NCBI GenBank assembly: GCA_964016885.1
Contig: OZ024753.1
Location: 13,082,001 to 13,146,000 of the forward strand
Direction of reading: 5' to 3'
Length of the DNA stretch: 64,000 nt
DNA from: Eledone cirrhosa
Lineage: Eukaryota
The position numbers and the translations under genes are program-made. Positions 21,553 to 63,843 of this stretch are shown piece by piece. The notes under the pieces were generated by a model. It was not told where the DNA came from and made no database searches. It saw only the letters and a list, made by a program, of their open reading frames with translations. Position 1 is the first letter of the stretch. Every line of letters starts with the position of its first letter.

Positions 21553-21622
<70 letters not shown>

Positions 21623-22468: not shown

Positions 22469-22507
<39 letters not shown>

Positions 22508-22676
22508 TCACATATATATGCGCACATACGTACACATATACACATACACACATATACACATAGACATATACATGTGCATACATGTACATACACACATATA
22601 CCCAAGATACACATATATACAGAGACATACATATACACACGCATATATACACACACATATACACATATATATATAT

Positions 22677-22713
<37 letters not shown>

Positions 22714-23883: not shown

Positions 23884-26013
23884 TTAATTAGGTTTATAAT
23901 ATTTAAATGTTTTTCTTAGTTTATGATTACACGATATAATTAATTCCTGTCGTTTATTTAATAGGATATCCTTAGATTTCATTATTTCAAATAGTTCTTG
24001 GGAACATAATCTACATTCATTTCTATTATTTTGATAAGGGGTGGCTCTTTTGAGCACACTCCAGGTCAAATCATATTCTATATTCTTATTTTTATAACTA
24101 TTGATTTTTTCTGCTAGAGATGTTGTATTAGCCAGTGCGGCATTTTTAAAACTATGTTTGTGGGTATTAAACCTTGTCTTAAAATTGTTAGAAGTAGCTC
24201 CTATATATGAGCAAATAGAATCTTTAGTTTTAACATTACATTTATAAACTATGTTGTTAACAAGACAATTTCCTTTTAATGGGCAGTTTGCTTTGCTTCT
24301 ACAGTTACAACCTTTCGTTAATTCTGTATTTGAGGAGATATTATGGTTAGTTTGATGTATTGGTGGTATACTTATGGTTTTCTTACATTTATATGCATTA
24401 TAGGCACTTATATTTTGTTTTATGTTATTTGTTGTTGAGTATGAGAATTTAACTGTAGACCTATTTAAGATTTGATGGTATTTGTGGTTTGGCGGGAAGT
24501 TTTTCTCTAGGATATAAAAAAATTTTTTAGCAATATTATCCTTAATTTGTAAATTAAATGGAGCATTATACCAAGTAACCCGTCTATTACGGTTTCTATG
24601 TTGTTTATTATTTTTATAGGTTGTATCATGATGTTTACTAGGAGGATTAATGTTAATGATCTCACCACACACATTTTTAGTTATATTTGTAGATTTAGGT
24701 GTTTTATCTTGTTTATTAGGAGTTTTATTATTAACATTTATTAGAGTTGTATGATGAGTAGTTTTTTGAGAGTTACTATACTTTATATTAGAAGATTTGG
24801 TATTTTGGGGTATAGTGTGGGTGGCATTTAGGTGTGTACTTTTCATTTGGTGTTTGTTGGTAATATTAGGTTGTATGTTTTTAGTATTTTTAGTAGAAGG
24901 TATATATTCTAATCTATTTTTGTGGCCACTTCTATCTAGAGCTTCGTTATAGAAGGTCGCATTTTTATCAAATACATCTTGGTTAGAAGAAAGGTTAGAA
25001 ATTCTAAGTGATATATTATATGCAAGGTTTTTAAGGATAGATTTAGGGTGATTAGATTGTGAGTGTATGTAATGTAAGTTTTGGTTGGGTTTATGGTAAG
25101 GTTGGTAGATACCCGTAGCTAAGTCTAAAGTTAAATCTAGGAAATTTACTACTTTACTTGTTTTTTCAAAAGTAATATGAAGACTATAATAGTCTTTAAG
25201 GAAAGTTCTAATATGCTTTTTGTTTTTTTCTATTTCTGAAAGGCTAAGGTTGTTGGGAAGAAGAAGACAGTCATCACGATATAAACCACCTTTAAGGTGG
25301 GGAAAGGAGGCATTTATGTTGAAAAGGAGAAAGAGGCCCACAAGATCAGTAATTTGGGCGGAATCGCTTGAACCCATAGTAATATCAAATAGATTACTAT
25401 ATGTGTTTCTGGTCCAGTATTCATTCTGAAATTCAATAAGTGTTAGTCTAGCATGTGTAATAATATTAATGTCATCCAAAGTTAAGTTAGATCTATTTTT
25501 AGCAAATATCAATGCTTTGTTCAGGAGTATAGGTGATATAGAAGAATAGTAATTATCTATATCAAATTGTAGAAATGAAGCAGAAGATTTACATCTAATA
25601 TTTTTAAACCAGTTAATTACCTGGGAAGTGTTTTCCCAGAGTGGTAAAATAACGTGTTTTCTTATTTGTGGGATGACTCTATCCAAAATTTTTTTGCTAA
25701 TTATTCCAATATCAGATTTGGAGGGACATATAAGTCTTATAGAAGGATTTGAGTTAAAGTTTGATTTATGATCCTTCAGGTTGAAGTGTGGTCTTTTCAA
25801 TGCCAAAGGTTCAGTTCTATCTTCAATGTTTAGTTTTGTTACTATGTTGTGTGTTTTGTTGTTGATGTTGGTGAGTGACGCATTATTAGATTTTTTATAA
25901 TTTTTCCTGAGTTCTTTATATATGAACTCATTATAATCTTCAATATCCATGTGATACAAGTTACCAGTTTTGTCCGAGTGGACATGGATTTTTTTAGACT
26001 TTTTTAGGTCCAA
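23884..26013 (-). CDS. Penelope-like (Naiad-type) reverse transcriptase + GIY-YIG endonuclease; uninterrupted 709 aa, 5'-truncated
   Basis: DKT motif, [33 protein letters not shown], CxCx5C linker, IVY...YIG, C-terminal CRLC and CNH. Confidence 0.92.
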
Positions 26014-26022
26014 TAGGGTAGA

Positions 26023-26052
26023 ATATTAGTATATATATATATATATATATTA

Positions 26053-27716: not shown

Positions 27717-27718
<2 letters not shown>

Positions 27719-28046
27719 ACAAACTGGCCAAGGAGGCTGAAGAGTACGTAAAGGTAATACAATCCCCCAATTCCGATGCTATCAAGAAACATGAAGAGAT
27801 TAAAGAAAATGTAACAGACATGACAAACTGAGTTCATCACTGAGCGTATTAAATGATACTTTGCAGTATATTGTAGGATATCTCGTATTTGGTAGTATTC
27901 TTAGTTGTTGTCTTACAACTTACGGAATAATAAATAACTTATTACGAAATAATACGGATTCATACATTTATGTATTACTTACGACGTTCGGCTTCCTGTT
28001 TTACTGGATTATACTAGTTTTGTTGGGCCTCCGTTTACATATATCG
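27717..28046 (+). pseudogene. 3' fragment of a type A gustatory-receptor-like exon
   Basis: Highly similar to 45690-46020; 1 bp frameshift near 27808; GTAAGT donor at 28047. Confidence 0.8.
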
Positions 28047-28589
28047 GTAAGTCTATATATAAATGTCTGTGATTCTGTCACAACACGTAAACAGAGAGGG
28101 GTAGTTTGATTACATCATACTACTCCTCTCTCTTTATGTCTGCTGACTGCGTGAATGTATGTGTGTGTAAAAGGAAGGCAGGAGGTGGTGAAAAACTATA
28201 GTGGTTGGCGTTCCACTTGTTATGCTGTACATGCGTGTATGTTTGTGTGAATGTAAGTGTGTGTGTTTATGTGAATGTATATCTAGATGTGCGTGTGTGT
28301 ATGTGTTTGTGTGAATTAGTGTTTGTGTGAATGTATGTATGTGTTTTCATGAGTGTATGTGTATGTTTGTGCGAATGTATGTCTAAATGTGTATTTTTGT
28401 AAGTGGGTCCATGTTTGCACGTTTATATTAATATACTCGTACATATAAATGTATGTATATGCATATACACACATGCGCGTCAGTGTGTTGAATAATTTTA
28501 TATAATATCTATACATTATGCATTCTGTCAATACCTGATTTTATACACATGTGTATTTGTATGAAACACAGTTTTCTGTAGTTTATCCT

Positions 28590-30178: not shown

Positions 30179-30462
30179 GACTCGCTCTGCTAAGAAATCA
30201 CTTGAAATACTTTCAACTGTTACTTCTGTACTTTTGTCAACCGAAAGCAAGGCAATAAATCCCGGGGTAGACCACAACAAAGATGGCTGCAAAACATCCA
30301 TTAGCTCTGTTTATCTCCCTTGAGGCCCCAGCTGAATTAATTAGAGAGAGACGGTTGCTTCTAACTCCACGATCCTCTCAGAAATAAGTATAAGAAGAAA
30401 TAAAACAATCAAAGTGTCATTAATTCTATAAATTATATGTATAAAACGTCATTATACAAATA

Positions 30463-45030: not shown

Positions 45031-46020
45031 ATGCATAAGATTACAAGTATTGAAGAAGGCCAACACAGTGAAAGCTTGAAAATAAAAGACACGATATTTT
45101 TCAAGTTCCTGAAATATTTTTTAGAACATAATTATATGAGATTAAGTGAAATGATATCTTTACTGAAATCACACACGTTCAAAGCATTGTGTTTGCTAGC
45201 TATTTATATTGTGGTCTTTATATATTTGATTCTAAACCCTATTTGTCTCATTGTTAATTTAACAACCTTAAAAGGTATACCTGATGCCAACATATTTATG
45301 TATGTCTACATTACATTTTGCTGGTGTATGATGTCTGTCCTATGTTTAATGAAATATTTCAAAGAGCCTCATTTCAAGGACATAATTGAAATATTCTCCA
45401 AAATTGAAATTGAAGAGAAAGATGGAAAACTGTACAGTTTCATATATTCATATAAGTCACTTTCTATATTAACAGCTGTGTATAGTATTTCTATCATAAT
45501 TACAGAGCTCATAATACCTATTTTTAGTAAAGACAGTGATCTGTTGGATTTTCTAGTATTTCAAATGACGATGGATTATAAGTACCTCATGGTAATTTTA
45601 AAATTTACACTACAAATTCTTTCCACTGTACCGCTGATGATTGATCTGTATATAAGCATTATACTTGAGCTTAATCTTACTCATGAGTTTAACAAACTGG
45701 CCAAGGAGGCTGAAGAGTACGTAAAGGTAATACAATCCCCCAATTCGGATGCTATCAAGAAATATGAAGAGATTAAAGAAATATGTAACAGACATGACAA
45801 ACTGAGTTCATCTCTGAGATTATTAAATAATACTTTGCAGTATATTTTAGGATTTCTCGTATTTGGTAGTATTCTTAGTTGTTCTCTTACAACTTACGGA
45901 ATAATAAATAACTTATTACAAAATCATACGGATTCATACAAGTATGTATTAGTTATGGCGTTCACCTTCCTGTTTTACTGGATTATACTAGTTTTGTTGG
46001 GTCTCCGTTTAAATATATCG
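45031..46020 (+). CDS. Intact large first coding exon (330 codons) of a type A gustatory-receptor-like (7TM chemoreceptor/ion channel superfamily) gene; C-terminal exon(s) not found
   Basis: About six hydrophobic segments; long loop HEFNKL...EICNRHDKLSSSLRLLNNTLQYILGF resembles the GR pre-TM5 H..L.....LN pattern; phase-0 GTAAGT at 46021, equivalent in all paralogs. Family assignment is by eye. Confidence 0.72.
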
Positions 46021-46044
46021 GTAAGTCTATATATAAATGTGTAT

Positions 46045-46136
46045 GTCACCCATATATTTATGTTTCTGCTGTGTTTGGCACCAGCCTGGCCTTTCTTAAT
46101 ATAATCTTTTCTTGTGCACTCCGGTTAAACAGATCG
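46045..46136 (+). pseudogene. 3' tail of a second type B GRL exon, followed by its intron start
   Basis: Matches about 32460-32550; similarity continues through the donor (46137) and the intronic SINE. Confidence 0.8.
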
Positions 46137-46182
46137 GTAAGTTACATCTTCGTTTTCCTTTTCTTTACATTTTTAGTATTAT

Positions 46183-46605
46183 GGATTGGCAGTGTCGGTA
46201 GAGCGTCAGACACCATGCTTTGTAGCATAGTGTTATGGCCCTTTACGTTCTGATTTGAAATCCCGCCGTGATTCACTTTGCTTTTCATCTTTACGGGGTT
46301 GATAAATAATGTACCTTAATGCATTGTGGTTGATTTAATCGACTTTCCCTTCCCCCAAAATTGTCGGCCTCGTGCCTAAATCAGAAATTATTATTTCCAT
46401 TATTATTCTTATGGCGGTGGATTGGCAGTATCGGTAGAGGGTTGGACGCCTTGCTTTGAAGTACAGAGTTACCTCCCTGTATGATCTGAGTTCAAATCCT
46501 GCCGAGGTTAACTTTGCCTCACATCGATAAAATATAGTACCAGTAATACATTGTGTTAATTGCTGGCCTTGTGCCAAAAGTAGAAATAATTATTATTATT
46601 ATTAT
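46183..46605 (+). mobile_element. Two tandem SINE copies, positionally paralogous to 32595-32998
   Basis: Same consensus and same position relative to the type B donor. Confidence 0.75.
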
Positions 46606-46791
46606 TACACATGTGGTAATTTACGCACGGCTGAGTCTTTCTCCAAATTTGTTTACTTACACCAACAATGGTGGGCCGAAATTCTTATTCGTTTTAATAA
46701 TTTCTAAAACAACGAAACGTGATATTGTGGTTCTGTTAATATTTTGAAAGATTCAAAATGACATGTTCAGATGTTGAAAAGAGAATGGCAG

Positions 46792-47974: not shown

Positions 47975-49375
47975 AACTCTTTCCTACAATCAGACCTAGA
48001 CACAATGCAGCGATGGATCACAGACAGGCAACTGAAGCTGGCTGTGGACAAGTGTACCACCATGCATTTGGGGAGGAAAAATCCAGCCTCCACATACTCC
48101 CTCCACAACACTGATATCAAGAAGTCCTCTTGTGAACGTGACCTAGCCATGACTGTCAGCAGCGATTTGTGTTGGACAAAGCTCATCTCTAAAATTGTCC
48201 TGAAGGCCGAAGGTGTCTTAGCATCACTCAGCAAGACCTTTGTTAGCCGCTCTCCAGCCATCTATTTAAAGCTGTATCATCAGTCTGGAACCCCTATCTT
48301 GCTCAGAACATTCACCGCCTGGAAACTGTTCAGAGACGTGCAACCAAGCGCATAGCCTCCATCAGACACCTACCATACTCTGAACGCTTTGCTTCCCTGG
48401 GCATGGATTCATTGAAGATCCAACGTCTGGCAATGGACTTGGTAAACACCACCAAAAGTTATTAACCATCTCGCCAATAACAACCCTGAGAACCCTTTTA
48501 ATCTCCATGTGTCTAACATACGTGGACATACCTACAAAGTCAGAAAATAGCATAGCTCCCATGACTTTCGGAAACATTTTTTCACGCTTAGACTTGCTGA
48601 AACATGGAACAAACTGCCTGCGTCAGTTGTTAGCTGCCGAGACACTGCATCCTTTAAAACCTCCATGCAACAAACTGCCTGTGTCAGTTGTTAGCTGCCG
48701 AGACACTGCATCCTTTAATACCTCCACGGAACAAACTGCATGCGTCAGTTGTTAGCTGCCGAGACACTGCATCCTTTAAAACCTCCATGGAACAAACTGC
48801 CTGCGTCAGTTGTTAGTGTCGAGACACTGCATCCTTTAAAACCTCCATGGAACAAACTGCCTGTGTCAGTTGTTAGTGTCGAGATACTGCATCCTTTAAC
48901 ACCTCCACGGAACAAACTGCCTGCGTCAGTTGTTAGCTGTCGAGACACTGCATCCTTTAAAACCTCCATGGAACAAACTGCCTGCGTCAGTTGTTAGTGT
49001 CGAGATACTGCATCCTTTAACACCTCCATGGAACAAACTGCCTGTGTCAGTTGTTAGTGTCGAGATACTGCCTCCTTTAACACCTCCACGGAACAAACTG
49101 CCTGCGTCAGTTGTTAGCTGCCGAGACACTGCATCCTTTAAAACCTCCATGGAACAAACTCCCTGCGTCAGTTGTTAGCTGCCGAGACACTGCATCCTTT
49201 AAAACCCTCATGCTTCCCGAAATTCGCCAAAACTACACCTGATGTCCTCCTTCCATACACATGCACACGTGTATATCATGACTCATGCACTGTTTATTTT
49301 CCTGACGTTTGTATATTACCCTATGTACTATACATACACCTTTGATGAGTTGTAGTGCACCTGAGCACTGTACAT
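47975..49375 (+). mobile_element. 5'-truncated CR1-like LINE 3' portion with an internal minisatellite
   Basis: LQSDLDTMQRW, KCTTMHLG, ERDL, VWNPY, LETVQRRATK, RGHTYK, FF....ETWNKLP; 3' boundary approximate. Confidence 0.85.
48603..49210 (+). repeat. 60/61 bp minisatellite, 10 units, derived from the CR1 ORF2 C-terminal codons
   Basis: Unit encodes WNKLPASVVSCRDTASFKTS; paralog at 55722-56025 has 5 units. Confidence 0.92.
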
Positions 49376-49490
49376 CCTCCGGGGAAAACGCCTTCTCCAT
49401 TCTGTCCTCCGGCGCTGTGGGGCGGCCAGCACGTGGGTCCCCATTTGCTCATTAAACAGAGAGATTGGGAGGGCGATAGAGATGGGAGCG

Positions 49491-49835
49491 ATTACGGTGG
49501 GAGTTCGGCTCTTCCGTGTTCCGACACATTGGGGCGAGACAGATGGGGGCGATTACGGTGGGAGTTCGGCTCTTCCGTGTTCAGACACATTGAGGCGAGA
49601 GAGAAGGGGTCGATTACGGTGGGAGTTCAGCTCTTCCGTGTACCGGCACATTGGGGCGAGAGAGAAGGAGTCGATTACGGTGGGAGTTCGGCTCTTCCGT
49701 GTTCCGACACATTGGGGCGAGAGAGATTGGGGCGATTACGGTGGGAGTTCGGCTCTACCGTGTTCCGACACATTGGGGCGAGAGAGATTGGGGCAATTAC
49801 GGTGGGAGTTCGGCTCTTCCGTGTTCCGACACATT
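49491..49835. repeat. 61 bp GC-rich minisatellite, about 6 units
   Basis: ATTACGGTGGGAGTTCGGCTCTTCCGTGTTCCGACACATTGGGGCGAGA...; paralog at 56308-56530 has about 4 units. Confidence 0.92.
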
Positions 49836-50011
49836 GTACCTATCAAGGGTGTATTTTCATACTTGTAACGAACATTGTGAATTCCTATTTATAATTTGAA
49901 TATAGCAAACAACTTGTTCACTGTTATTCCTTCTCCAATAATAGCTACTAACAGACCTATTAATAAAGGCGGATCAGAACCTTCTTCTGCTGCTCCTGTA
50001 AGGATAATAAT

Positions 50012-50192
50012 AATTATTTCTACATTTGACACAAGGACAGCAATTACACCAGTACATTACTAGTACTTTATTTTATCGACTCCGTAAGGATTAAATGAAA
50101 AGCAAAGTTAACCTCGGCGAGATTTCAACTCAGTCTGTAAAGAACCGTAACTCTATGCTGAAAAGCATGGCGTCCGACCCTCTACCGATACT
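50012..50192 (-). mobile_element. tRNA-derived SINE, mostly deleted in duplicate copy B
   Basis: Same consensus. Confidence 0.75.
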
Positions 50193-50357
50193 ATTCAAAC
50201 GCAACACAGGGTTTTCAAAAGAACTTGACGATATGTGACAAAATAGATAAGTTCCAGAGCTCTATAGCCGTAAAACTTGTGTCAAATATAAAAAAGCAAA
50301 GAGAGAAAGAGTTCTCGCTCGTGGACAACACAATGATCTATACGTTTGTATCCCTTA

Positions 50358-50441
<84 letters not shown>

Positions 50442-50937
50442 CTGAGAAATGGTATGAGCATAGGCCAGAGGCGGTGATGGAGAACAATCAGGTGAAGGTG
50501 CTGTGGGATTTTAGGATACAGACGGACAAAAAACTGGAACACAATAGACCTGACCTGGTGGTTGTGGACAAAGAAAAAAGATCGTGTCTGATTGTGGATG
50601 TGGCCTGCCCGTTCGACACGAGAGTGCAAGAGAAGGAGAGGGAGAAAATTAACCGATACCAGGACCTAAAGTGGGAGATGAAAAGGATTTGGAACTGCCA
50701 TGAAGTCAAAGTGATCCCGATTGTCATAGGCGCACTGGGGACTATCTCCAAAAGTTTCCAGGGATGGTTAAAGAAAATCGGCCCCTTCACGCTTTTTGGA
50801 ACGCTTCAAAAGGCATGCTTGCTTGGAACAGCAAGAACCCTCCGATACGTCCTGAATATCTGAGGCTGCAGGTAGTGGCTTGATATTCAATCCAACGGAC
50901 TTTCCAGTTAACCAACATCAATGACTGAGATTCAAGG
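50442..50937 (+). mobile_element. Heavily 5'-truncated R4/Dong-like element (RLE domain + 3' UTR) in (TAA)n
   Basis: KWYEH.P, LWDFRIQTD..LEHNRPDLVV, DVACP, KINRYQDL, PIVIGALG; TAA repeats on both sides. Confidence 0.9.
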
Positions 50938-50975
50938 AATAACAACAATAATAGTAATAATAATAATAATAATAA

Positions 50976-53900
50976 AGAAAAAGAAAAAGAGAGAAAAATG
51001 GTCAAGGGAAGATAATAAAGAAGTCCTTGAGGCTTTCTACACTGCCATGTACTACCCATCAAATACATCGAATACAGAACAGACATATATCAACTGGAAA
51101 AAGAAACATCCCGAAAACAGAGGCTATATTGACAGTAACAAACTAGCCAATATACGAAGAAATATTGTAAGAAAAAAGTTACTAACTGATATAGAAATTG
51201 ATCAGATCAAGCTATTAGCACAAAGTCAGCGAAGGGAAAATGAAACATGTGTCAGTGAAAACGAGGTAAACTGTAACACTTCGAATCCCAGGGTTGGGGC
51301 GGAATCACTGGCAACAGAACAAATTAAAGAAAGGATCGAAAAAGTGGAGGGAGTGCATGCTCAGGATGAAACTCCAAATGAAAATAATGAGATCGTAAAT
51401 TATAAGGAAATGAATGAGAATGAACTTGCCAACTTGAAGGATGAAATTATGATCGAATGGATGAAAATGAAAGAATCTGACATGGGACAACGAGACACCC
51501 TCCCTAAGATCCAGAACTCCAAACAGAACCAAAAGATAATACACAAGACTAACATAATTCTCAAAAACATTATCATCACAAAAAAACTAAACATTACTGA
51601 TTTAAATCATCTCTATTATGCATCGGCTAAAGTCACCACTCACTTATGTGGAGTGAAGATGAAAAAACAAAGGAATTCCCACAAGAAATCTACTTGGCAA
51701 GAGAACATCAATCGCCAAATAAACCTTCTCCGATCTGACATAGAAGTTTTAACAAACTATAAAGTAGGTGAACATGTTAAACAAACTAAACTTAGAAAAT
51801 TGAAAAAAAAGTACAGTATAAAATCAACATGTGACATAGACATGCTGATAGAAATAATCAAGCAAAAAGTGTCGGCCAAAGCTGCTCGTATAAGGCGCTT
51901 TGAAAAACGATCTAGATTCTATAAGGACAATAATATGTTCAAAAACAACCAAAGAAACTTCTACAGAAAAATTGGTAAGTCAACAATAACTGCTAAATCA
52001 ATACCACCCAAGGAGGAAGTGCAAGAATTCTGGGAAAAGATCTGGGCCGAAGAAAAAGTTCATAACATACATGCCCCATGGATAGACAGACAAATGAAAG
52101 ATACAGCTCACCTTGAGGAACAAACATGGGAAAATATAACAGTTGAACAGTTGCGCTTGGCTCTAAGAAAAACCAGCAAATGGAAATCCCCAGGAAAAGA
52201 CAAAATACAAAACTTTTGGATAAATGCCTTCACAGAGTCTCGTGAGCTGTTAGCCCAACTTTACAATGAAATAGTTAAGGAGCCAGAAAAGATACCGTCA
52301 TGGCTAGTTAACGGCATTACATTCCTGCTTCCGAAGAATGATGAGACAAACAATCCCAAAAATTACAGACCGATAACTTGCTTGACCACAATGTATAAAA
52401 TTTTAACATCAGTCCTAACTGAATACACATATGACCACCTGATAACAAATGACCTATTTCCCATTGAGCAGAAAGGGTGTTTACGAGGCTCATATGGCTG
52501 TAAGGATCAGCTTCTGGTTAACAAAATGATACTGGAAGATTGTCATAATAGACACAAAAATCTATCGATTGCTTGGATAGATTATAAAAAAGCATTTGAT
52601 AGTTTGCCACACAGTTGGATTGAAAAATGTTTAGAGATTTTCAAAGTATCCCCCGTTGTCAGGAGGTTTTTGTCATTCAGTATGAAGACAGGGAAATAAA
52701 ATCACTGGAAGCTGGAGAAGTTAATATTAATTGTGGAATTTTTCAGGGTGACTCTTTATCACCGCTTTTATTTTGCATCGCACTTATACCATTAAGTAAA
52801 ATGCTCAATGAAACAAAACATGGATATAAAGTCTATGACAAAACCATTAATCACCTGTTCTACATGGATGACCTGAAACTATTTGCAAAAAATGATGAAC
52901 AATTGCAAGGGCTATTATCCACTGTGAAGCAGTTCAGTGATGACATTAAAATGGAGTTTGGACTAGATAAATGCGCCAAAGCAACGTTCACCAGAGGAAA
53001 GCTGCTGAAGAGTTCAGACATTAATCTTGATCGGGGGAACGTGATAAGAGAACTTGATCAAGAAAAAACTTACAAATATCTAGGTGTTTGTGAAGGAGAC
53101 GGAATCAAGCACTCGACAATGAGGGAAAGGATAAGGAAGGAATGTTACCGCAGAGTAAGAGCAATCTTAAGAACGGAATTGAATGCAAGGAATAGGATCG
53201 ATGCCATAAACACGCTTGCCATACCAGTAGTAACCTACAGTTACAATGTCATCAACTGGTCAAGCACAGAGATCCGTAGGCTCGATACAAAAATTCGAAA
53301 ATTCTTAACCATGCACAGAATGCATCACCCTAAGGCAGATATAGATAGAATATATCTCCCTAGGAAAGAAGGAGGACGTGGGTTAATCCAGTTAGACATT
53401 GCGTTGAAAACTGCAACAATTGGATTATCTACATATCTAAGGGAATCACATGACTGGATGAACAAACTCGTTTTGAAACACGAAAGCATCAAAAGATCAT
53501 ATTCCATTACAAAAGATGCACAAAGATACAGTAATGGACTACAAATTTCAGAAGTCCCATTTACTGCTGAAATGGAAAACACAGAAAAAGCAAAGCAGGT
53601 AAAAGTAACTGCAAAGAAAGAACTGCTACAGAAACTGGCTAAGAAATGGCAAGAAAAGCCTCTGTATGAAAAATACCCAGAGCGAGCTAACAATCCTGAT
53701 GTTGACAAAACGTTAACCCATCAGTGGTTGGCATCCTCTGGACTGAAATCGGAGACTGAAGGACTGATTATATCGGCACAAGATCAGTGTCTGCCAACAA
53801 AAAATTACCAAGCCAACATAATAAAAAATGGGTGCAGCCCATTATGCCGTGTATGCAAAAAACAACCAGAGACCATTGACCATATAATTTCAATGTGCAG

Positions 53901-54554
53901 TCCTATAGCTCCAACCGAATACCTAAACAGGCATGACAGAGCTGCACAATACATACATTGGATAATGTGTAAGCATTTTGACCTGCCCCATCAAAAGAAT
54001 TGGTGGGAGCATCAACCACCTCCCATACTTGAAAAAGATCACATCTCAATCTTGTGGAACTTTAGCATCCAAACAGACCGAAAAATAGATGCAAACAGAC
54101 CTGATATAATATTGAAAGACTTTCAAAAGAGGGTATGCCTGCTAATTGATATGTCTGTTCCAATAGACAAGAATGTATCTATAAAAACATTTGAAAAATT
54201 GAGCAAGTATAAGGACCTGGAGATAGAAATTGGAAAAATGTGGAAATTGAGAAGTAAAACAATACCAGTGGTTGTAGGCGCTCTGGGAATGATACCTAAG
54301 GGGTCTAATGATTACATATCGCAAATCCCAGGAAACCCGCGTATAGGAGAAATACAAAAGATAGTACTAATGGGAACTGCCCATATACTAAGGAAGATTC
54401 TCTCAATATAAGTACATCACAAGTCTAAACACTAAAGATGCATGTGTGAATATGTATGTTCTTTCTTGAACATGGCGGACCTTGTTGTCTCTTGAGGTCA
54501 CTGGTTGTGACTTGGTGATAATTCGTATGAACATAAAGCAAGATAAATGCAACT

Positions 54555-54556
<2 letters not shown>
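50976..54556 (+). mobile_element. Near full-length R4/Dong-like element in (TAA)n, one frameshifting lesion near 52690
   Basis: KSPGKD, NYRPITCL, DYKKAFDS, GIFQGDSLSP, FYMDDLKL, DRIYLPRKEGGRGL, CRVC..H..C, RHD, RPDI. Confidence 0.93.
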
Positions 54557-54603
<47 letters not shown>

Positions 54604-54607
<4 letters not shown>

Positions 54608-54792
54608 TGTTTCTACTTTAGGCACAAGGCCAGCAAATACCCAGTGCATTACTGGTACTTTATTTTATCGACCCCGTAAGGATGAAAGGCAAAGTCAACC
54701 TCGGCGGGATTTAAACTCATATCGTAAAGGGACGTGACTATGCTGGAAAGCATGGCGTCCGACCCTCTACCGATACTGCCAATCCACCGCCG
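54604..54792 (-). mobile_element. tRNA-derived SINE whose (ATT)n tail holds the Dong-like insertions
   Basis: Full consensus; 3' end runs into the (TAA)n at 54557-54606. Confidence 0.85.
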
Positions 54793-54812
54793 TTTAATAA
54801 CAATAATAATAA

Positions 54813-54956
54813 CTAGCAGAATGGCCCGGCGTTGCTCGGGATTTGTTCTAGGGTTCTTATATATTTAATATATATTTATCCTTATCGAGCTTCGTGAAAT
54901 AAATACTTTTGTTTATATTTTGTTATTGTGTATGCAAAAATATCCTGACACGAATA

Positions 54957-55033
<77 letters not shown>

Positions 55034-55160
55034 ATGTATATATATATTAAAATAACAGATTAAAGTTTAAGCAAAGAATCGCTGCTTTCACCCATAACGG
55101 GATCTTCTGAAACTAAAAAAATCAATCTGTGAACGCAGAAGTAAATATTTCGAAAAACGT
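54813..55160 (-). mobile_element. 3' half of a non-autonomous Helitron, cut by the duplication junction
   Basis: Matches 63147-63522. Confidence 0.7.
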
Positions 55161-55161
55161 T

Positions 55162-56190
55162 AAAAATCCAGCCTCCACATACTCCCTCCACAACACTGAT
55201 ATCAAGAAGTCCTCTTGTGAACGTGACCTAGCCATTACTGTCAGCAGCGATTTGTGTTGGACAAAGCACATCTCTAAAATTGTCAAGAAGGCCGAGGGTG
55301 TCTTAGCATCACTCAGCAAGACCTTTGTTAGCCGCTCTCCAGCCATCTATTTAAAGCTGTATATAGCTATGGTACGGCCACACTTGAAATTCGCATCATC
55401 AGTCTGGAACCCCTATCTTGCTCAGAACATTGACCTCCTGGAAACTGTTCAGAGACGTGCAACCAAGCGCATACCCTCCATCAGGCACCTAACATACTCA
55501 GAACGCTTTGCTTCCCTGGGCATGGATTCATTGAAGCTCCGACGTCTGGCAATGGACTTGGTAAACACCAACAAAAGTTATTAACCATCTCGCCAACAAC
55601 AACCCTGAGAACCCTTTTAATCTCCATGTGTCTAACATACGTGGACATACCTACAAAGTCAGAAAACAGCATAGCTCCCATGACTTTCGGAAACGTTTTT
55701 TCACGCTTAGAGTTGCTGAAACATGGAACAAACTGCCTGCGTCAGTTGTTAGCTGCCGAGACAATGCATCCTTTAAAACCTCCATGGAACAAACTGCCTG
55801 TGTCAGTTGTTAGCTGCCGAGACACTGCATCCTTTAAAACCTCCATGGAACAAACTGCCTGCGTCAGTTGTTAGTGTCGAGATACTGCATCCTTTAACAC
55901 CTCCACGGAACAAACTTCCTGCGTCAGTTGTTAGCTGCCGAGACACTGCATCCTTTAAAACCTCCATGGAACAAACTGCCTGCGTCAGTTGTTAGCTGCC
56001 GAGACACTGCATCCTTTAAAACCCTCATGCCTCCCGAAATTCGCCAAAACTACACTTGATGTCCTCCTTCCATACACATGCACACGTGTATATCATGACT
56101 CATTCACTGTTTATTTTCCTGACGTGTGTATATTACCCTATGTACTATACATACACTTTTGATGAGTTGTAGTGCACCTGAGCACTGTAC
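55162..56190 (+). mobile_element. Duplicate CR1-like fragment
   Basis: Paralog of 48077-49375; retains the YIAMVRPHLKFASSVWNPY segment partly deleted in copy A. Confidence 0.85.
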
Positions 56191-56852
56191 ATCCTCCTTG
56201 GGAAACGCCTTCTCCATTCTGTCCTCCGGCGCTGTGGGGCGGCCAGCACGTGGGACCCCATTTTCTCATTATACAGAGAGATTGGGAGGGCGAGAGAGAT
56301 GGGAGCGATTACGGTGGGAGTTCGGCTCTTCCGTGTTCCGACACATTGGGGCGAGACAGATGGGGGCGATTACGGTGGGAGTTCGGCTCTTCCGTGTTCC
56401 GACACATTGGGGCGAGAGAGATGGGAGTGATTACGGTGCGAGTTCAGCTCTTCCGTGTTCCGACACATTGGGGCGAAAGAGAAGGGGTCGATTACGGTGC
56501 GAGTTCAGCTCTTCCGTGTTCCGACACATTGCACCTATCAAGGGTGTATTTTCATACTTGTAACGAACATTGTGAATTCCTATTTATAGTTTGACTATAC
56601 CAAACAACATGTTCACTGTTATTCCTTCTCCAATAATAGCTACTAACAGACCTATTAATAAAGGCGGATCACCCTCTACCGATACTGTTCGAACGCAACA
56701 CAGGGTTTTCAAAAGAACTTGACGATATGTGACAAAATAGATAAGTTCCAGAGCTCTATAGCCGTAAACCTTGTGTCAAATATAAAAAAAGCAAAGAGAC
56801 AGAGTGTCCCCGCTCGTGGGCAACACAATGATCTATACATTTGTATCCCTTA

Positions 56853-56886
<34 letters not shown>

Positions 56887-57149
56887 GTAATAATAATAAT
56901 GATTTCTTTATTAACCACAAGGGTTTACATAAAGTAGACATTAAGGACAGTGCAGGACAATGCAGGACGGTACAAAAGGGCATTTCTGCGTGTAAAAAAC
57001 AAAAACAGAGGATGTAACAAAAATAACAATGAAAAATTCCCCAATAGGGGGGAGACTTCGGAGGGACATTTGTGGAGAAAGCCCAGTAAAAAGCCACAAT
57101 GACCCTGACCACCAAGGCAAGTGCCCTCTCCCAGTTTTCCACCTTTAGT

Positions 57150-60100
57150 TTACAGATATATACTCAGAGTCGGCCCATTCACTCGGGCCATTCTTGCTTC
57201 TCTCACCCATCTTTCAACAAAATGCTGGGAAGAGAGCACTTCCCTCTCTACTCTGATTTTCCTTTTCAAATGAAATTTGAAAAAGTCAATCAGAGCATCA
57301 CCGAAGAGGTAAGTGCTCGTCTTCAGCCCTTTCAAACGTGTCCACCATACTATCTCTTTCGCCATGGCCACCAGACAGATAAAAACTGCCTGCCCTTCCC
57401 GGCTAAAGGAGGAGGGCGGGGCAATCCTCACGATAGACTCAGATGATAGCTGGATCCGTCCTAAACGCGACAGCAGGTGTTCGACATAAACCCACAAGTC
57501 AGCAATTTTCGGACACTGGACGAGTGCGTGCAGGACGGTTTCGTCGCCCTGCGCGCATCTCGGACATGCCCGGCTGACGGCACCTCCATGCCTGTAGAGT
57601 TTATCCCGAACTGGCAAGGCTCCTCGGTAGCACTGCCAGGCCAGAGATTTCTGGAAGTTGTCCATAGGCCCTGGCCCGAAAGTTCTTCCGAAGAGATTGG
57701 CTAGTTGATTTTCGTCGACGCCTAGAGTTTCCCCAAGTACGTCGTCGCTCTTCCCCTCCACTAATCCTCTATAGAACGCCGAGGTGGAGTTTCCACCGAT
57801 CACATTGCCCGATTGGTCGAGGGCTGTGAGCGCCTGAAGACATTCCAGTCTCCAGGCGCTCCCTCTCGGTCTTCGCTTGACCCAGGACTGCAGCTCCGTC
57901 AAGGAAACGAGCTGGGGAAAAACGCGTCTAGCAAACGGCGACCACACCTGATCACCGTCGAGGAAGAGGTGGGGATGTCGTAGCCTGAGCGCGTGCCTGC
58001 GCATCATCAGCCACGGCATGCCCAGCCCTCCACGTAGCGGGTGTTGACAACAGATGGACCGCCTGACCATCGGAGCACGTCCCTTCCACAAAAAGCGAAA
58101 GAGCAAACGCTCCAGCGCAGTCAGGCGAGGCTTAGGACAAGGTACGACGGTTAGGCGGTAGCAGATGATAGACGCGATGTACGCGTTAGCCACCTCCGCT
58201 CGACCTTTCAGGGATAGCTTCCTCTCCGCCCATTTCTGGGTGAGAGAAGCCACCCTGCTCGTCACCTCGTCCCAGTTTTTGTCCGTCTGGAGGTCCGGAC
58301 CGAACCAGACCCCTAGCAATTTAACCGGTCCGTCCGTCCAGCGCCCGACGACGCTGTTGGACGGCATGGACCTGCCTCTCCAGGTGCCGAGCTGCAGGCC
58401 CACTGACTTTTCCTGGTTGATCATTGCTCCTGTCACCGCTTCGTATTCTCTTAGTGTAGTGCCGATCGCCTCGATGTGTTTGGCGTTCGACACCACTACG
58501 GTGACATCGTCCGCATATGCTGACACGGATCTTCCGCATCCTAGTTCGCGCGGGACTCCCCTCAACGTCTCCAGTTTGTGCAGTAATGGCTCGAGAGTCA
58601 ATACGTACAAGAGGGACGAGAGGGGACATCCTTGGCGGACCGAGCGCATGATGTTGAACGGTTCCGACAGGTGACCGTTCACTCTCACCACAGAGCAGAT
58701 GTCGCTGTGCATGGCAGCGATCCAGCCTCTGAAGACGGGCCCAAAGCCAGCCGCCCTCAGGACTGCCGCTAGGTAACGATGGTCGACCCTATCGAAAGCT
58801 TTCGACTGATCTAAATTGATCAAGGACCCACCCGTGCCAGGTTACCTAGCTACCCTCTCTACGATGTATCGCATGAGGTGGAGGTTGTCGTGGATGGATC
58901 TGTCGGGAATGGCGCATGTCTGCGCCTCTCCCACCAGACCACCAACGACAAGCGCCAACCTCTTTGCTAGCACCTTGGCCAAAATCTTAAACTCTGTGTT
59001 TAGCAGAGTTATGGGCCGGAAATTGTCTATGTTATCCCCCTTGTTCGGATCCTTTCTCAGCAGTGCCACCGCTCCTCGGCTCACAGAACTGGGAATTCTC
59101 CCGTTCTGTTGCCAGTTGCAGTAGACGTCCGCCAAGAGGCCTCCGAACAAGTCTGGCATCTGTACGTAAAGTTCATAGGGCAGACCATCCAAACCAGGCG
59201 ATTTACCCCTTGTGCAGCCAGTCATTGCCTCCCGTACTTCAGCGGCTGTTATCGGCTTTTCGCAACACTTCGCCTCAGTGGCCGAGAGCCGCGGCAGTCC
59301 GTCGAGGTAGACACTAAAGTCCATCCCTCTACCCGGCCCCCCGCTGCCCCCGAACAGCTGAGCGAAGTGTCGCTGAAAAGCTTCACACATTTGCCCGGAT
59401 TCGAGTAGCATGCGCCCGTCGTGGTCCACCAAAGACCGGATCGTGGCTTTGTTGCCACGACGCGCCTCCGCCACTCGGGCCCATTGAACGGCTTTCGTCC
59501 CCTCGTGTCTGAGAGCACGCACCCTAGCTCTGACAACGCAGCCTTCGTGCTTTGCATTGAAGAATTGGTCAAGGGCCAATTTTGCCGCAAGCACGTCGGT
59601 CGCAATGCCTTTGCTAAGCGCCTCGTCTAATTTTCTAACTAGTTCTCCCTCTGCTCTATTTTTCTCTATTGCTAAATCCTTACTAAACCTAATCGATTCT
59701 ATTCTAATCGCTCTTTTCAGAGCAAACCACCACTTGTTGTTGACGATGGCCCCCGTCAACGCCCGCTTAACTAGTTCGCTAATCCGGTCTCTGTAGGCCT
59801 TGCGCGCTGGTAAGGACGCGTTTAGCTTCCAGTAGCCGGGTCCTCGTCTATGAAGCCTATCTAAGTCAAGCACACAGGTCACGAATTTGTGGTCCGTGTA
59901 GCTGACTATCTTGAATTGTGGACAGCCTATGCTAGACCTATCTATTTCCCTACAAAATACTCTATCTAGATATGATCTGGATGACCCTATGCGGTTTGTC
60001 CAAGTCCACATTGGCACATTCGGGAAATCCAATCGGTACCTGTCAGACAGTTCAAAACGCCTGAGCAGGTTGGTGAGGCTCTTGCACCCTCCACCCCTAT

Positions 60101-60569
60101 CCGCTAATCCCACACAGTCCCAGCGTGCATCTAAGATCCCGTTCCAGTCGCCCACTAACACTAAAGAGCGGGACGTTCCAAGAAAGGTCTCCAGACGCCG
60201 GAAGAAATCAGGCCGCCCTGCTCCTGTCGGGGCATAGACGGCCACTAGCCTGAAAGCTTGCCCGTCTCCGCTGGTCACGTCCAGCACCACCAGCTTACCC
60301 TCTGGGTCCAGGAAGATGGCCCGTATGGCGAGATCTAAACCTCTCCGAAAAAGCACAGCAACTCCTCCACCCGATCCAGGACGGCTGGGAGATGTGTACA
60401 CATCGTAGCCGCCGAAGATCGGTGCGAAGGCCCGTGCTTCGGAGATTCTGGTCTCGCTGATGGCCACTACATCTACGTTTAGTGACCTGAGGTCGTTGAG
60501 CAGGTGACCCTGCTTCCATGACGACCCCAAGCCACGCGCATTTATGCTGCCTATTCTGAGTGAGGTCAT
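57150..60569 (-). pseudogene. Tx1-like ORF2 (APE endonuclease, RT, C-terminal CCHC) with one in-frame stop
   Basis: SINARGL, SETR, VYAP, GDWN, LDRV, TDH; KSPGLDG, FRPITLLN, KAFDRV, RQGCPLS, YADD; CPRC..ETVLHALVQC. The two ORFs share a frame, separated by TAA at 58842-58844. Confidence 0.92.
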
Positions 60570-60604
60570 GTTTAAAATATAGTGGAAAAGATGGGAAAGA
60601 CCAC

Positions 60605-62701
60605 TTACCGTACTTTTGGTAGAGGAGGGATGGTTTTTACATCCCTTTTCACTTGATCGTCTGGTGAAGGGACCGTTGAATCGTCCCTTCGGCTGGTCGT
60701 CGGCTCTTCTAAGAGAATGTCTGAATATACTCTTCGATTGATGGTTCCTCCTAGGTCCCTGAAATCACCAACTGCGTTGGGGAATTTCGTTTTAATGTTT
60801 GTGTATTCTTTCTGTGCTATTTTTAGCAGTCTTATGTTAGTTGGCGTTTTGATTGGTGCTGGTATTATGTAGTCCTGTTGTGAAATGTCTGTGTGTTCAA
60901 TTATGTAAGTCATTAGTTTCTTGTTGTGTGTGTTTATTGCCGTGCATTTGTTTTTCTGGGGGTGGGGTGTGGTTCTGCTATTTTCTTGTCGTTGTTGCTG
61001 GGTGTGTGTGTTTTGTTGTTGTGTTTGCGATGTTGGTGCTTGTGGTGGTGGTGTTGAAGGTGTTGTTGGCGGTGGGGTTGTCGCCGGTGGTGATGGTGGT
61101 GCTGGTGTGGGTGGTGATGGTGTTGGTGGTGTTGCTGCTGTGGGTCTCTTTGCAGTAGACTTTATCCTTTTCTCATTTCTTTCCTCCCTTTTCAAAGGCG
61201 ACGATGCGCTGCTTCTGCGTTTGTGCCTTCTTGCGACCTTTTGCCATCCCTCTCCCACCTCACACTCCATGTCTGATTCTGTGAGGTCGGGGAGGGGTAC
61301 CAGCTCCACTCTTTCACTTGTTGTTGTTGGTGATGTTTGCACTGGAGTCTCTGTTGCAGCTGCATTTGGTATTGCTGTTGTTGTTGTTAATATTTCCACT
61401 GCTGCTGCTGTTTTTGATATCCGTGGAGTCGGTATCGGTGCCACGGGCCTATCGTTCCTGGTTGCCGCTTGTCCTGTTGCTGGTGGCCGTGGAGCCGGAT
61501 TCGGAAGGAGGGGGGTTTTCTCCTTTCTCAGGGTCTTCTCGTTGCAGAAGGCCCTGAGGTGAGTCTTCGATCCACAGCGAAAGCATTTCGGGCGTTTGCC
61601 CTCAACACTTATGGGCAGTTGAGTGCCGTTATCGAAGTCTATCACATCCGGGATAGCTTCGATGCACTCCTGGTTGGTTTGGATTAGCATCTCAATGGAG
61701 GAGCCGACCCAATCTTCTCTTACTTTTTTCTGTACTTGCAGTACAGTTGTTTTGTCCTCGATTCCGACGAGGACAGACGCGGCCAGCCAAGAAGGGGTCA
61801 TTCCGGGGGAGACGTGGGTCAGTTTGACCCTCACAATTTTTTGCCCGCAGTAGGAGGGCACCAACACCATTTCCTCGCTCCTTAGGGTCACTACTGATTG
61901 GGCCTTTGCCTCCTGGGGTGTGGCAAAAAGTACGTCTACGGTGGAATATTTTTTGCCTCGGGTGATGTGCGTTTTCCGCTGCCACACAGACCCCAAGGCT
62001 TTTTGTATTTGGGCCTCTGTGGCTCTTTCCACCCTACGGGATTTTGTACTTACTGTACGGTACGTGACCGTACAGTGCTCTTGGGTTTCGAAAAATTTTT
62101 CCGCTGCCTTGCAGATTGCTCGGTGTCCGTTCTTTGTCACCATCTTCTTCGCTTCCTCTAATTCCTCATTTGTTATGAGGATTGTTTCCAAGTTTTTCGC
62201 AATACCTGCAAATGAGATTGGTTTTTCTCTGCTGTTGTTGTTGTCGTCAGAGCTGCTGGTACTTTTGTTGTTGCTGCAGGTACTACGACTACTGCCTCCG
62301 CCGCTGTTGCTGTGGTTGTTGTTGGTGTTGCTGCTGCTAATGCTGTTGTTGTTTATGCTGCTGGTGATGCTGTTGCGGCTGCTACTGTTGTTTTCATTGT
62401 CACTGTTGCTGTTGTTATTACGGCTGCTACTGCTATTATTCCTGACGTCAGACGAATGAACTGGGTTTTCGTATTTCCTGCACACCTGTTTCGTCGCTGT
62501 CGTCGTCGTCGTGGAGAAACCTTGCACGCTTTGCACGAGACTTTTCTTTTCTTTCGTCACTTGCGAAAGAGAAGGGAGGGAGAGAGACACATTTAAAGAA
62601 GGGAGGGAGAGAGACAATCTTCTCTCTGCTGTAGTGATGATTGAGGAAGAAGAAGACGGAATGAGTGGGAGTGACGTATGAAATTTCTTTTTCGTAGCCA
62701 T
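60605..62701 (-). CDS. Tx1-like ORF1 with zinc knuckle, 698 aa
   Basis: CFRCGSKTHLRAFC (CX2CX4HX4C), low-complexity S/N and P/T regions, directly upstream of ORF2. Confidence 0.88.
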   Translation of the reverse strand: MATKKKFHTSLPLIPSSSSSIITTAERRLSLSLPSLNVSLSLPSLSQVTKEKKSLVQSVQGFSTTTTTATKQVCRKYENPVHSSDVRNNSSSSRNNNSNSDNENNSSSRNSITSSINNNSISSSNTNNNHSNSGGGSSRSTCSNNKSTSSSDDNNNSREKPISFAGIAKNLETILITNEELEEAKKMVTKNGHRAICKAAEKFFETQEHCTVTYRTVSTKSRRVERATEAQIQKALGSVWQRKTHITRGKKYSTVDVLFATPQEAKAQSVVTLRSEEMVLVPSYCGQKIVRVKLTHVSPGMTPSWLAASVLVGIEDKTTVLQVQKKVREDWVGSSIEMLIQTNQECIEAIPDVIDFDNGTQLPISVEGKRPKCFRCGSKTHLRAFCNEKTLRKEKTPLLPNPAPRPPATGQAATRNDRPVAPIPTPRISKTAAAVEILTTTTAIPNAAATETPVQTSPTTTSERVELVPLPDLTESDMECEVGEGWQKVARRHKRRSSASSPLKREERNEKRIKSTAKRPTAATPPTPSPPTPAPPSPPATTPPPTTPSTPPPQAPTSQTQQQNTHTQQQRQENSRTTPHPQKNKCTAINTHNKKLMTYIIEHTDISQQDYIIPAPIKTPTNIRLLKIAQKEYTNIKTKFPNAVGDFRDLGGTINRRVYSDILLEEPTTSRRDDSTVPSPDDQVKRDVKTIPPLPKVR

Positions 62702-62931
62702 GTTGTTTTTTGTTTAAAATGAATACAAAACCCCAATAACTGGTTATTTAACCCCGAAGGGCCAAATAACGGACAGAAAGACCCCTCTCACGAGGAGGAC
62801 GGTGTCTTTATCAACAATTTGGTTCAAGTTTTAAACAATTTACAATTGTTTTAACGGTTAAAAATTACTATACCTTACAGAGCCGAGCCTCCGTCAACCA
62901 TGGCATTCAATAATAATAATAATAATAATAA

Positions 62932-63120
62932 TAATTGTTTCTACTTTAGGCACAAGGCCAGCAAATACCCAGTGCATTACTGGTACTTTATTTTATCGAC
63001 CCCGTAAGGATGAAAGGCAAAGTCAACCTCGGCGGGATTTAAACTCATATTGTAAAGGGACGTAACTATGTTGGAAAGCATGGCGTCCGACCCTCTACCG
63101 ATACTGCCAATCCACCACCG
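62932..63120 (-). mobile_element. tRNA-derived SINE whose (ATT)n tail holds the Tx1-like insertion
   Basis: Paralog of 54604-54792. Confidence 0.85.
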
Positions 63121-63146
63121 TTTAATAATAATAATAATAATAATAA

Positions 63147-63290
63147 CTAGCAGAATGGCCCGGCGTTGCTCGGGATTTGCTCTAGGGTTCTTATATATTT
63201 AATATATATTTATCCTTATCGAGCTTCGGGAAATAAATACTTTTGTTTATATTTTGTTATTGTGTATGCAAAAATATCCTTACACGAATA

Positions 63291-63355
<65 letters not shown>

Positions 63356-63358
63356 ATT

Positions 63359-63411
<53 letters not shown>

Positions 63412-63843
63412 TAAAATAACAGATTAAAGTTTAAGCAAAGAATCGCTGCTTTCACCCATAACGGGATCTTCTGAAACTAAAAAAAATCAATCTGTGAACG
63501 CAGAAGTAAATATTTCGAAAAAGGTTACACACTATATATATATATAAACACACACACTATATATACATATATACACACACACATACACACAAACAGCTAC
63601 GTCATAATGTCGTAATGCAGACAGCCAGGCATACAGACAGATATTATAAGGGCGCAACGTTATATCTATGTATCTATCTAAAAAGAAAGACTGAGAGAGA
63701 GAGATCGCTAAATCGCCTAATGCCGTCCCTAGGGCATTGAACATTTGAAATATATTTTTTCTCAAAACACTCACAGGAAAATAAGTATTACATGTGTAAA
63801 GTTTGAAAACAATCGGTTGGGTGGTTCGCGAGTTTTGGGGAGT

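Follow-up and report, generated by a model that had tools for sequence, protein, structure and literature searches.

The 64,000-nucleotide stretch analysed here (the window; contig OZ024753.1, positions 13,082,001 to 13,146,000) is AT-rich animal DNA with 33% G+C and many microsatellites, short interspersed elements (SINEs) and long interspersed elements (LINEs). Our subject is a tandemly duplicated site in which a tract of AAT units (ATT on the opposite strand), leading into the 3′ end of a minus-strand SINE, holds different LINEs in its two copies. Copies A and B meet at a direct tandem junction at 55162 and diverge by 3.5% (54 mismatches in 1554 aligned non-repeat bases). Common to both is a left flank ending in GTATCCCTTA, followed by the (AAT)n tract and the SINE 3′ end. 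Copy A then reads GTATCCCTTA, (AAT)28, the element e1, a 38-nt degenerate AAT spacer, the element e2, (AAT)17 and the SINE 3′ end (54608), whereas copy B reads GTATCCCTTA, (AAT)11-AGT-(AAT)4, a minus-strand Tx1-like element, (AAT)9 and the SINE 3′ end (62936). An earlier reading of the letters alone (the original prediction) had described this layout, with coordinates that agree with ours to within 1 nt, and its claim of different LINEs, two in copy A and one on the opposite strand in copy B, is borne out by their domains and flanks. The features of the locus are as follows.

48077–55161: copy A of the tandem duplication, ~3 kb without its LINEs (from masked self-BLAST, divergence and junction)
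50358–50441, plus strand: (AAT)28, left part of the tract in copy A, 5′ of e1, with the same left flank in B
50442–50937, plus strand: e1, a 5′-truncated R4/Dong-type LINE consisting of the last 140 codons, with a restriction-like endonuclease (RLE; PD..D..K), and the 3′ untranslated region (UTR)
50938–50975, plus strand: degenerate spacer AAT AAC AAC AAT AAT AGT (AAT)6 AA between e1 and e2
50976–54555, plus strand: e2, an R4/Dong-type LINE, 5′-truncated just before a putative Myb/SANT-like domain
54556–54607, plus strand: (AAT)17 on the 3′ side of e2, contiguous with the SINE 3′ end
54608–54791, minus strand: SINE of copy A, with a tRNA-like head (by eye) and the 3′ hairpin GGC-CTTGT-GCC at 54621–54631
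54794–54813, plus strand: interrupted (AAT)n on the 5′ side of the SINE in A, read as the second copy of a target duplication
55162–63527: copy B of the tandem duplication (from masked self-BLAST)
56853–56900, plus strand: (AAT)11 AGT (AAT)4, left part of the tract in copy B
56901–62908, minus strand: Tx1-like LINE, apparently full-length
56913–56925, minus strand: 3′-terminal hairpin AACC-CTTGT-GGTT of this LINE, its loop ending 16 nt ahead of (ATT)n, the same spacing that the SINE has
60569–57150, minus strand: Tx1-like open reading frame (ORF) 2, with apurinic/apyrimidinic-type endonuclease (APE), reverse transcriptase (RT) and zinc finger, and one in-frame stop at 58842–58844
62701–60605, minus strand: Tx1-like ORF1, 698 amino acids, with a CCHC knuckle
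62909–62935, plus strand: (AAT)9 between the Tx1 5′ end and the SINE 3′ end
62936–63119, minus strand: SINE of copy B, 98% identical to that of copy A, with its hairpin at 62949–62959
63123–63146, plus strand: perfect 24-nt (AAT)n on the 5′ side of the SINE in B

We favor, with a probability of roughly 0.58, a reading in which (ATT)n/(AAT)n is the shared target of two retrotransposition machineries working on opposite strands, and in which the SINE was mobilized by a LINE of the Tx1 lineage. Papers are cited below by PubMed Central number.

The two copies differ further to the left of the tract, where an older SINE (50007–50192 in copy A) is represented in copy B only by its 5′ end, 201 bp being absent there (A 49977–50176 versus B 56671). 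A CR1/L2-like LINE 3′ fragment, recognized by eye, occupies 48077–49213 and 55162–56030; its end is expanded into a ~61-bp minisatellite whose copy number differs between A and B, and a second 61-bp minisatellite follows it at 49471–49836 (A) and 56288–56531 (B).

Three LINEs of two endonuclease types

The elements of copy A belong to different families, sharing 41% amino-acid identity over 137 residues and a best DNA match of 52 nt at 71% (E 0.067). They fall in different subclades of a FastTree phylogeny of 46 of 117 full-coverage matches plus three elements of the window, the placement of e1 resting on 140 residues; its closest match is P0112 (55% amino-acid identity). The single ORF of e2 carries RT, CX2CX8HX4C finger, RHD and PD..D..K endonuclease motifs, with the RT preceding the CCHC finger, contains no in-frame stops and one frameshift (a net 25-nt loss near 52690), and starts ~70 residues into the ORF of its relatives. 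Among solved structures, those of R2 proteins come closest to it (E 9e-14). Protein searches returned 709 longer proteins at E 1e-30 or better, the best being 62% identical and unnamed, and none of the 120 matches listed is named Dong, R4 or Rex6. The Atlas yielded generic RT clusters only. Evolutionarily, e2 groups with unnamed proteins and, more distantly, with RTs of Pediculus, Diaphorina, Penaeus and Anolis; it is 44% identical to an RT of Pediculus humanus corporis (P0099), a species in the R4/Dong alignment of PMC7998251. Structurally, the first 85 residues of e2, from which the extreme N-terminus is missing, are predicted to form a four-helix fold (pLDDT 90.6) whose best structural matches are of Myb/SANT type, all below Z 8 (NgTRF, Z 5.9, root-mean-square deviation 4.8, 75 residues aligned; R2 8ibw, Z 4.7), and a Foldseek search with this domain model gave no match at E 0.001. 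The predicted fold agrees with the Myb-like N-terminal domain described for R4/Dong elements (PMC7998251).

That Dong targets TAA repeats had been noted for Bombyx in the original prediction and is in print, insertion into (TAA)n being reported from insects, molluscs and cnidarians (PMC3812793, PMC7998251). Like Dong, DongAg, DongBg and the ostracod Dong in those papers, e2 has a single ORF with RT, CCHC finger, RLE and N-terminal helices that may be of Myb/SANT type, and both e1 and e2 lie in the sense orientation with (TAA)n bordering them at either end, 5′ and 3′ (one copy each; the tract 5′ of e2 could be the tail of e1). The Dong insertion at this locus is of a known kind. What differs from the known systems, as described in those papers, is that two distant subclades occupy one tract and that truncation has removed the 5′ region of e1 and e2, where an HDV-like (hepatitis delta virus-like) ribozyme has been described for the clade (PMC3774820). 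A contrast within the window is provided by a third RLE family (943–4743, 31% amino-acid identity to e2), which is flanked by ATAC-type repeats and not by AAT. This deep-branching family occurs twice, as a near-complete copy with stops and as a 3′ stub (1–150, 322–371, 654–942, 943–4743, 4744–4907), and behind each copy stand (CATA/ATAC)n and a shared stretch of ~50 bp (88% identical); this may be an ATAC-targeting family inside the tail of another repeat, or reflect an old duplication.

The copy-B element encodes APE (PF03372, E 4e-15), RT and zf-RVT domains with catalytic motifs. Its best relatives are 37–49% identical and unnamed, the named matches include an alligator TX1 protein, and in a tree without an L1 reference it forms its own clade with unnamed proteins (support 0.99), whose link to the TX1-named group is unsupported (0.12); on these comparisons, membership of the Tx1 clade is likely. 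A scan of genome contigs recovered 42 loci with relatives, 38 of them at 42–43% amino-acid identity and all 38 (L001–L036, L039, L040) from one assembly, which is labelled a bacterial metagenome-assembled genome and consists of evidently eukaryotic DNA. The contigs of these 38 loci consist largely of head-to-tail arrays with a period of ~6.4–6.9 kb and several 5′ UTR/ORF1 subfamilies, and the window element is sister to their clade with support 0.99 (54 rows). Junction counts given below take 34 of the 38, four being too short after ORF2, and exclude L037, L038, L041 and L042 (26–31% identity).

The SINE, its target and its 3′ hairpin

The SINE belongs to a dispersed short-repeat family with 14 BLAST matches in the 64 kb, target-site duplications (TSDs) and a simple-repeat tail. 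Its head shows A/B box-like motifs by eye only, for which ARAGORN called no tRNA and Rfam gave three weak, unrelated matches, and a comparison of the SINE with plasmid sequences returned no match. Three SINE-after-SINE dimers (30459–30892, 32596–32999 and 46182–46607) each consist of a long variant with a C-rich insert and then a short variant, the latter two dimers lying in paralogous segments.

Eight other SINE units in the window retain a 3′ end, and six of these have TSDs of 8–18 bp that begin with ATTAT two bases after a conserved AGAAA, a motif (ATTAT) with a background frequency of 0.0033 per position in the window. Three of the six TSDs exceed 13 bp, one shows a 5-nt offset at the 5′ side, and two of the SINEs may be paralogous; the remaining two units have a doubtful 6-bp match and no TSD, respectively. 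Judging by these flanks, ATTAT is where the family inserts. At the locus, the SINE is bordered by ATT runs at either end, including a run on its 5′ side (63123–63146 in B, 54794–54813 in A) that the original prediction missed. From the two-sided runs and the ATTAT TSDs it follows that an ATT run was already present when the SINE arrived and that the SINE lengthened this run, and since TSDs of 8–18 bp would here consist of ATT only, at least 3–6 units would have preceded it. The SINE is therefore probably a user and amplifier of ATT runs and not their first source.

The converse, that the SINE tail made the microsatellite from scratch by slippage and that three unrelated target-specific LINEs then used the tract, we regard as unlikely. 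SINE tails are known to give rise to microsatellites (PMC3812793), and every perfect tract of at least four units in the window belongs to the locus tract, to the 5′ flank of the locus SINE or to another SINE tail (46589–46607), the SINE concerned (46413–46607) having three ATT units on its 5′ side and six on its 3′ side. Yet seven of the eight other SINE tails hold only 1–3 units (the eighth holds 6), the locus SINE has its long run on the 5′ side too, and an ATT-only TSD of the length seen elsewhere needs the 3–6 prior units. Of the proposal that SINE tails seed the landing pad, then, the tie between long tracts and SINEs stands, while the 5′ run, the six ATTAT TSDs and the short tails speak against the tail as the origin.

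Returning to a shared target used by a Tx1-type machinery, the bridge between the SINE and the window Tx1 element is their 3′ end. The SINE tail comprises a C-rich stretch and a GGC-CTYGT-GCC hairpin; SINE and Tx1 carry (ATT)n on the same strand, and their last 24 bases agree at 15 positions, as did 18 of 20,000 shuffles. With a profile made from 11 SINE ends only, the Tx1 end agrees at 15 of the 23 conserved columns when set in exact register to the ATT tail, and it closes the same CTTGT loop by a Watson–Crick stem (4/4 pairs) of different sequence. A score of 15 is reached at only two window positions outside the SINE and Tx1 3′ ends, neither with this stem, and at 27 positions in 11 related loci, one with the stem, which led to the terminal hairpin of the relatives. 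A pattern search gave 12 hits in the window (the 11 SINE ends and the Tx1 end) and none in the 42 loci, with a pattern that had been defined after both sequences were seen. Derivation of the SINE tail from e1, e2 or the third RLE family was rejected, these ends giving 8–10 matches of 24, no better than shuffles.

In the relatives, a hairpin with a CTYGT loop and at least three pairs (GGC-CTYGT-GCC) is present at 30 of 34 loci, and the other four have CTAGT in the same stem. It lies 644–729 nt downstream of the ORF2 match, with a C-rich stretch in front of it and AATAAA 18–22 nt behind it, and is kept in two families that are ~65% identical in DNA. The ORF1 of the next unit follows 39 of the 43 hairpins, and the only array edge seen (L022) starts where internal units start, just after the hairpin. 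A 3′ end at an internal AATAAA ~500 nt after ORF2 was considered and rejected, the end lying ~230 nt further downstream. Between the conserved hairpin and the AATAAA the relatives have a second hairpin of variable sequence (L013:1864–1900 and equivalents; z down to −3.2) that is absent from the SINE and the window Tx1. The long SINE variant at 46180–46400 aligns with L010 over 36 nt with 86% identity (E 1e-4), and its scores against four loci were reached by 0, 0, 0 and 3 of 500 shuffles. The conserved hairpin appears in the best fold of three of the four relatives folded and of the window Tx1 (z −2.1), and its pair counts exceed shuffled and slid controls. Taken on sequence comparison, the SINE 3′ tail looks homologous to the Tx1-lineage 3′ end, with a conserved stem-loop, the best homology being between the relatives from the other assembly and one long SINE variant. 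Since the stems differ, the LINE partner of the SINE is probably a sister family of the window Tx1 and not this exact element. The description of the hits on the tract as independent holds insofar as three different LINE families with two endonuclease types are involved, but the SINE and Tx1 have a 3′ hairpin and their polarity in common and probably use one machinery.

Several observations weigh against this reading. For a second long SINE variant, 5 of 500 shuffles reached the score at one locus, and the scores at three others lacked significance. Matches of the short SINE and of the window Tx1 3′ UTR to the relatives were weak or differently placed, and the Tx1 3′ UTR, which has no C-rich stretch, does not align with the UTRs of the relatives around the hairpin. 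In folding, SINE 3′ ends do not surpass their shuffles; the hairpin is not the best structure in 4 of 12 of them, where a competing fold wins, and two more fold otherwise. The covariation comes almost wholly from the one Tx1 sequence, and the sequences examined were also those on which the structure had been drawn up. One copy of each LINE family was examined, so that ATT targeting by Tx1 rests on one insertion with the SINE TSDs as a proxy, and TSDs cannot be delimited within pure repeat. A single assembly is the source of all the related Tx1 loci, and an AAT/ATT tract follows ORF2 in 0 of 34 of them and occurs anywhere in 0 of 38; ATT targeting is therefore not lineage-wide and would be host- or family-specific. 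SINEs mobilized by RTE elements also have TSDs that begin like their 3′ repeat (PMC6007223), and RTE-BovB has expanded in cephalopods (PMC10294476), so that an RTE partner may serve the SINE; no RTE was found in the window for a comparison of tails.

A slightly less probable account than tail seeding is that the Tx1 lineage recognizes not ATT, but the DNA just downstream of the hairpin, whether its own 3′ end or the derived SINE tail, which would explain arrays, SINE dimers and the copy-B insertion alike. Each unit of the relatives starts ~30–35 nt after the hairpin of the previous one, 43 nt separate the SINE loop from the 5′ end of Tx1 in copy B, the window holds the three SINE dimers (two possibly paralogous), and Tx1 families often target other transposons (PMC4494074). 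Against this, several SINE monomers (39382, 41101, 43832) occupy ATTAT sites that no other SINE immediately precedes, the unit that opens the array at the L022 edge lacks a hairpin of this kind before it, and the arrays could also have come from unequal crossing-over.

Timing and rarity of the insertions

For recognition of the ATT tract itself, the age of the tract relative to the LINEs matters. The original prediction had allowed that the repeats might be merely each element's own 3′ tail; at this locus, however, tract flanks the elements on both sides. Its left part lies 5′ of e1 and its right part 5′ of Tx1, and each part is also present in the other copy, so these are not those elements' own tails and the tract is older than the LINEs, as had been proposed. 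Across the three LINE ORF sets we count one nonsense change against 6.9 expected (P 0.008), the expectation being that of neutral ORF decay over half of the A–B divergence, and this deficit supports LINE insertion after the duplication. Taken singly, e2 gives P 0.05, Tx1 0.13 and e1 0.69. The claim that all of the LINEs inserted after the duplication thus holds as the most likely history of e2 and Tx1, judged from their reading frames, and does not extend to e1, which is too short to date.

The same small size of e1 leaves some room for a single event in which reverse transcription of e2 jumped to the 3′ end of e1 RNA, so that the tract was hit twice and not three times, an account we hold to be about as improbable as recognition downstream of the hairpin. 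The R2 reverse transcriptase is capable of template jumping. The two elements are head-to-tail on the same strand and both 5′-truncated, and template jumping has been invoked for 5′ extensions in PMC4494074. However, the 38-nt spacer between them has three interruptions versus no stops in ~1,280 adjacent codons, and its AGT interruption recurs in the left tract of copy B. These interruptions argue weakly for the spacer being older genomic tract, the shared AGT being weak evidence because it is one of only three single-transition variants of AAT.

Insertion at such tracts also exceeds what chance would give. The 64 kb contain eight perfect AAT/ATT tracts of at least 12 nt (274 bp in total), of which seven are at the locus, and such tracts make up 0.6% of non-LINE DNA and 4% of perfect microsatellite bases in the window. 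Under random placement, the chance that at least 3 of 4–12 LINE insertions fall in them is P 1e-6 to 5e-5, computed before any correction for the window having been picked as interesting. It is highly improbable, in our estimate, that the Tx1-like element is not sequence-specific, landed by chance at a T/purine step in an AT-rich tract and resembles the SINE hairpin by coincidence: there is one copy, its relatives have no ATT flanks and the window was chosen after the fact, but the tracts are scarce, the profile match and stem are in exact register and the hairpin is terminal in the sister clade too. Least probable of all is that A and B represent two haplotypes wrongly joined in tandem by the assembly, or that the LINEs predate the duplication and were lost reciprocally through recombination between flanking tracts, for although the junction at 55162 is known from the assembly alone and the flanking tracts are direct repeats, the copies differ by 3.5%, by the 201-bp deletion and in minisatellite copy number, the LINE ORFs are too intact, and even as alleles the insertions would be independent.

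Elsewhere in the window there are several Penelope-like elements (9184–26025 and 34412–36321), with an RT-like ORF and a GIY-YIG-like end and one weak Pfam match (E 6.5e-4); their copies are inverted and direct, up to 99.9% identical and embedded in long (AT)n tracts. Three paralogous ORFs or fragments (44989–46104, 31600–32667 and 27717–28066) encode a multi-pass membrane protein, chemoreceptor-like by eye, and a near-length search with the ORF at 45031–46023 found no homologue. A mariner-like element of ~880 bp (39784–40664) has 103-bp terminal inverted repeats (94%), is inserted in (TA)n and contains, by eye, a broken transposase-like frame.

Proposed mechanism and relation to known systems

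Under the favored reading, the flanks record an order of ATT run, SINE, duplication and LINEs (e1 undated), with the RLE and APE elements in opposite polarity. Judging by the flanks, a SINE inserted into a short ATT run, target duplication and tail leaving ATT on both sides and a longer run, and the ~3-kb segment was then duplicated in tandem. Two R4/Dong-type elements, with a putative Myb-like domain and RLE, would have entered copy A in the (TAA)n sense, a targeting known for the clade and presumed for these families, and the Tx1-like APE element would have entered copy B in the (ATT)n sense from a nick at approximately 5′-ATAAT^R-3′. We posit that a Tx1-lineage ORF2 recognizes the terminal hairpin of its own RNA and of the SINE RNA and primes on ATT, and that Dong proteins bind via the Myb-like domain and nick the other strand. 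The SINE and Tx1 would share polarity and target because the SINE carries a Tx1-lineage 3′ hairpin and is mobilized by a LINE of that lineage.

Tx1 families are known to insert specifically into microsatellites and other transposons and can bring SINEs to the sites that they use themselves, target specificity being accepted there when more than 20% of family copies conform (PMC4494074). Kibi in (TC)n, Koshi in (TTC)n and the crocodilian Tx1 elements in (TTCC)n/(TTTC)n (PMC4494074) resemble the window Tx1 in having two ORFs, an APE-RT-zinc finger order and a location within a microsatellite, unlike it in using TC-type targets instead of (ATT)n; the window element also has no poly(A) tail after AATAAA. 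It further differs from vertebrate Tx1 in belonging to a distinct, invertebrate-looking subclade, at most ~40% identical to the named vertebrate matches. The SINEU/Tx1-Mar system of crocodilians shares with ours a SINE and a Tx1 lineage on one target, tandem insertions and inferred trans-mobilization, but SINEU has small nuclear RNA heads and poly(A) tails, and no LINE with the SINEU-1 3′ terminus was found (PMC4494074), whereas here the 3′ hairpin is shared. In form, the hairpin resembles those of UnaSINE/UnaL2 from eel and ZmSINE2/LINE1-1_ZM from maize, which are short and terminal, with a conserved loop, a variable but compensated stem and a simple-repeat tail (PMC3747384). RTE-mobilized SINEs are alike in that the first TSD bases echo the 3′ microsatellite, and unlike in TSD length, ours of 8–18 bp (3/6 above 13) being nearer the L1 range quoted in PMC6007223.

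Table 1 of the 2013 review PMC3747384, on stringent pairs, lists three L1-clade pairs (two from maize, one from an alga) and contains no animal L1 or Tx1 pair. Our literature search found no (ATT)n-targeting Tx1, no cephalopod SINE with a Tx1 tail and no SINE tails serving as shared LINE targets; Kojima and Fujiwara 2004, Ohshima and Okada 1994 and Repbase/Dfam were outside its scope and could hold such cases. Beside the known targeting by Dong, the convergence of Tx1 on the tract and the SINE tail of Tx1 type are a probable new variant. If the reading is true, an APE-type Tx1 converging on Dong's repeat from the other strand would be new, as would an animal SINE with a Tx1-type 3′ hairpin, and the duplicated site would be a natural two-replicate test of target choice. 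Since L1-clade LINEs rarely share tails with SINEs (3 pairs among >800 families, none from animals; PMC3747384), the Tx1/SINE pair would also be a test case for stringent versus relaxed 3′-end recognition in the L1/Tx1 group. SINEs form 11.6% of the O. vulgaris genome, in which Dong-R4 and L1-Tx1 have recently been active (PMC13282606), and if the host is an octopus, a partner would have been named for these SINEs. More broadly, and as a possibility that we rate at somewhat less than even, an abundant animal SINE would have derived its 3′ tail from the Tx1 lineage and be mobilized by stringent hairpin recognition, the lineage targeting ATTAT in this host; each SINE insertion would duplicate and extend ATT runs, so that as the SINE spreads Tx1 gains sites on one strand and several Dong families gain sites on the opposite strand, and such feedback could give rise to nested clusters of retroelements across the genome.

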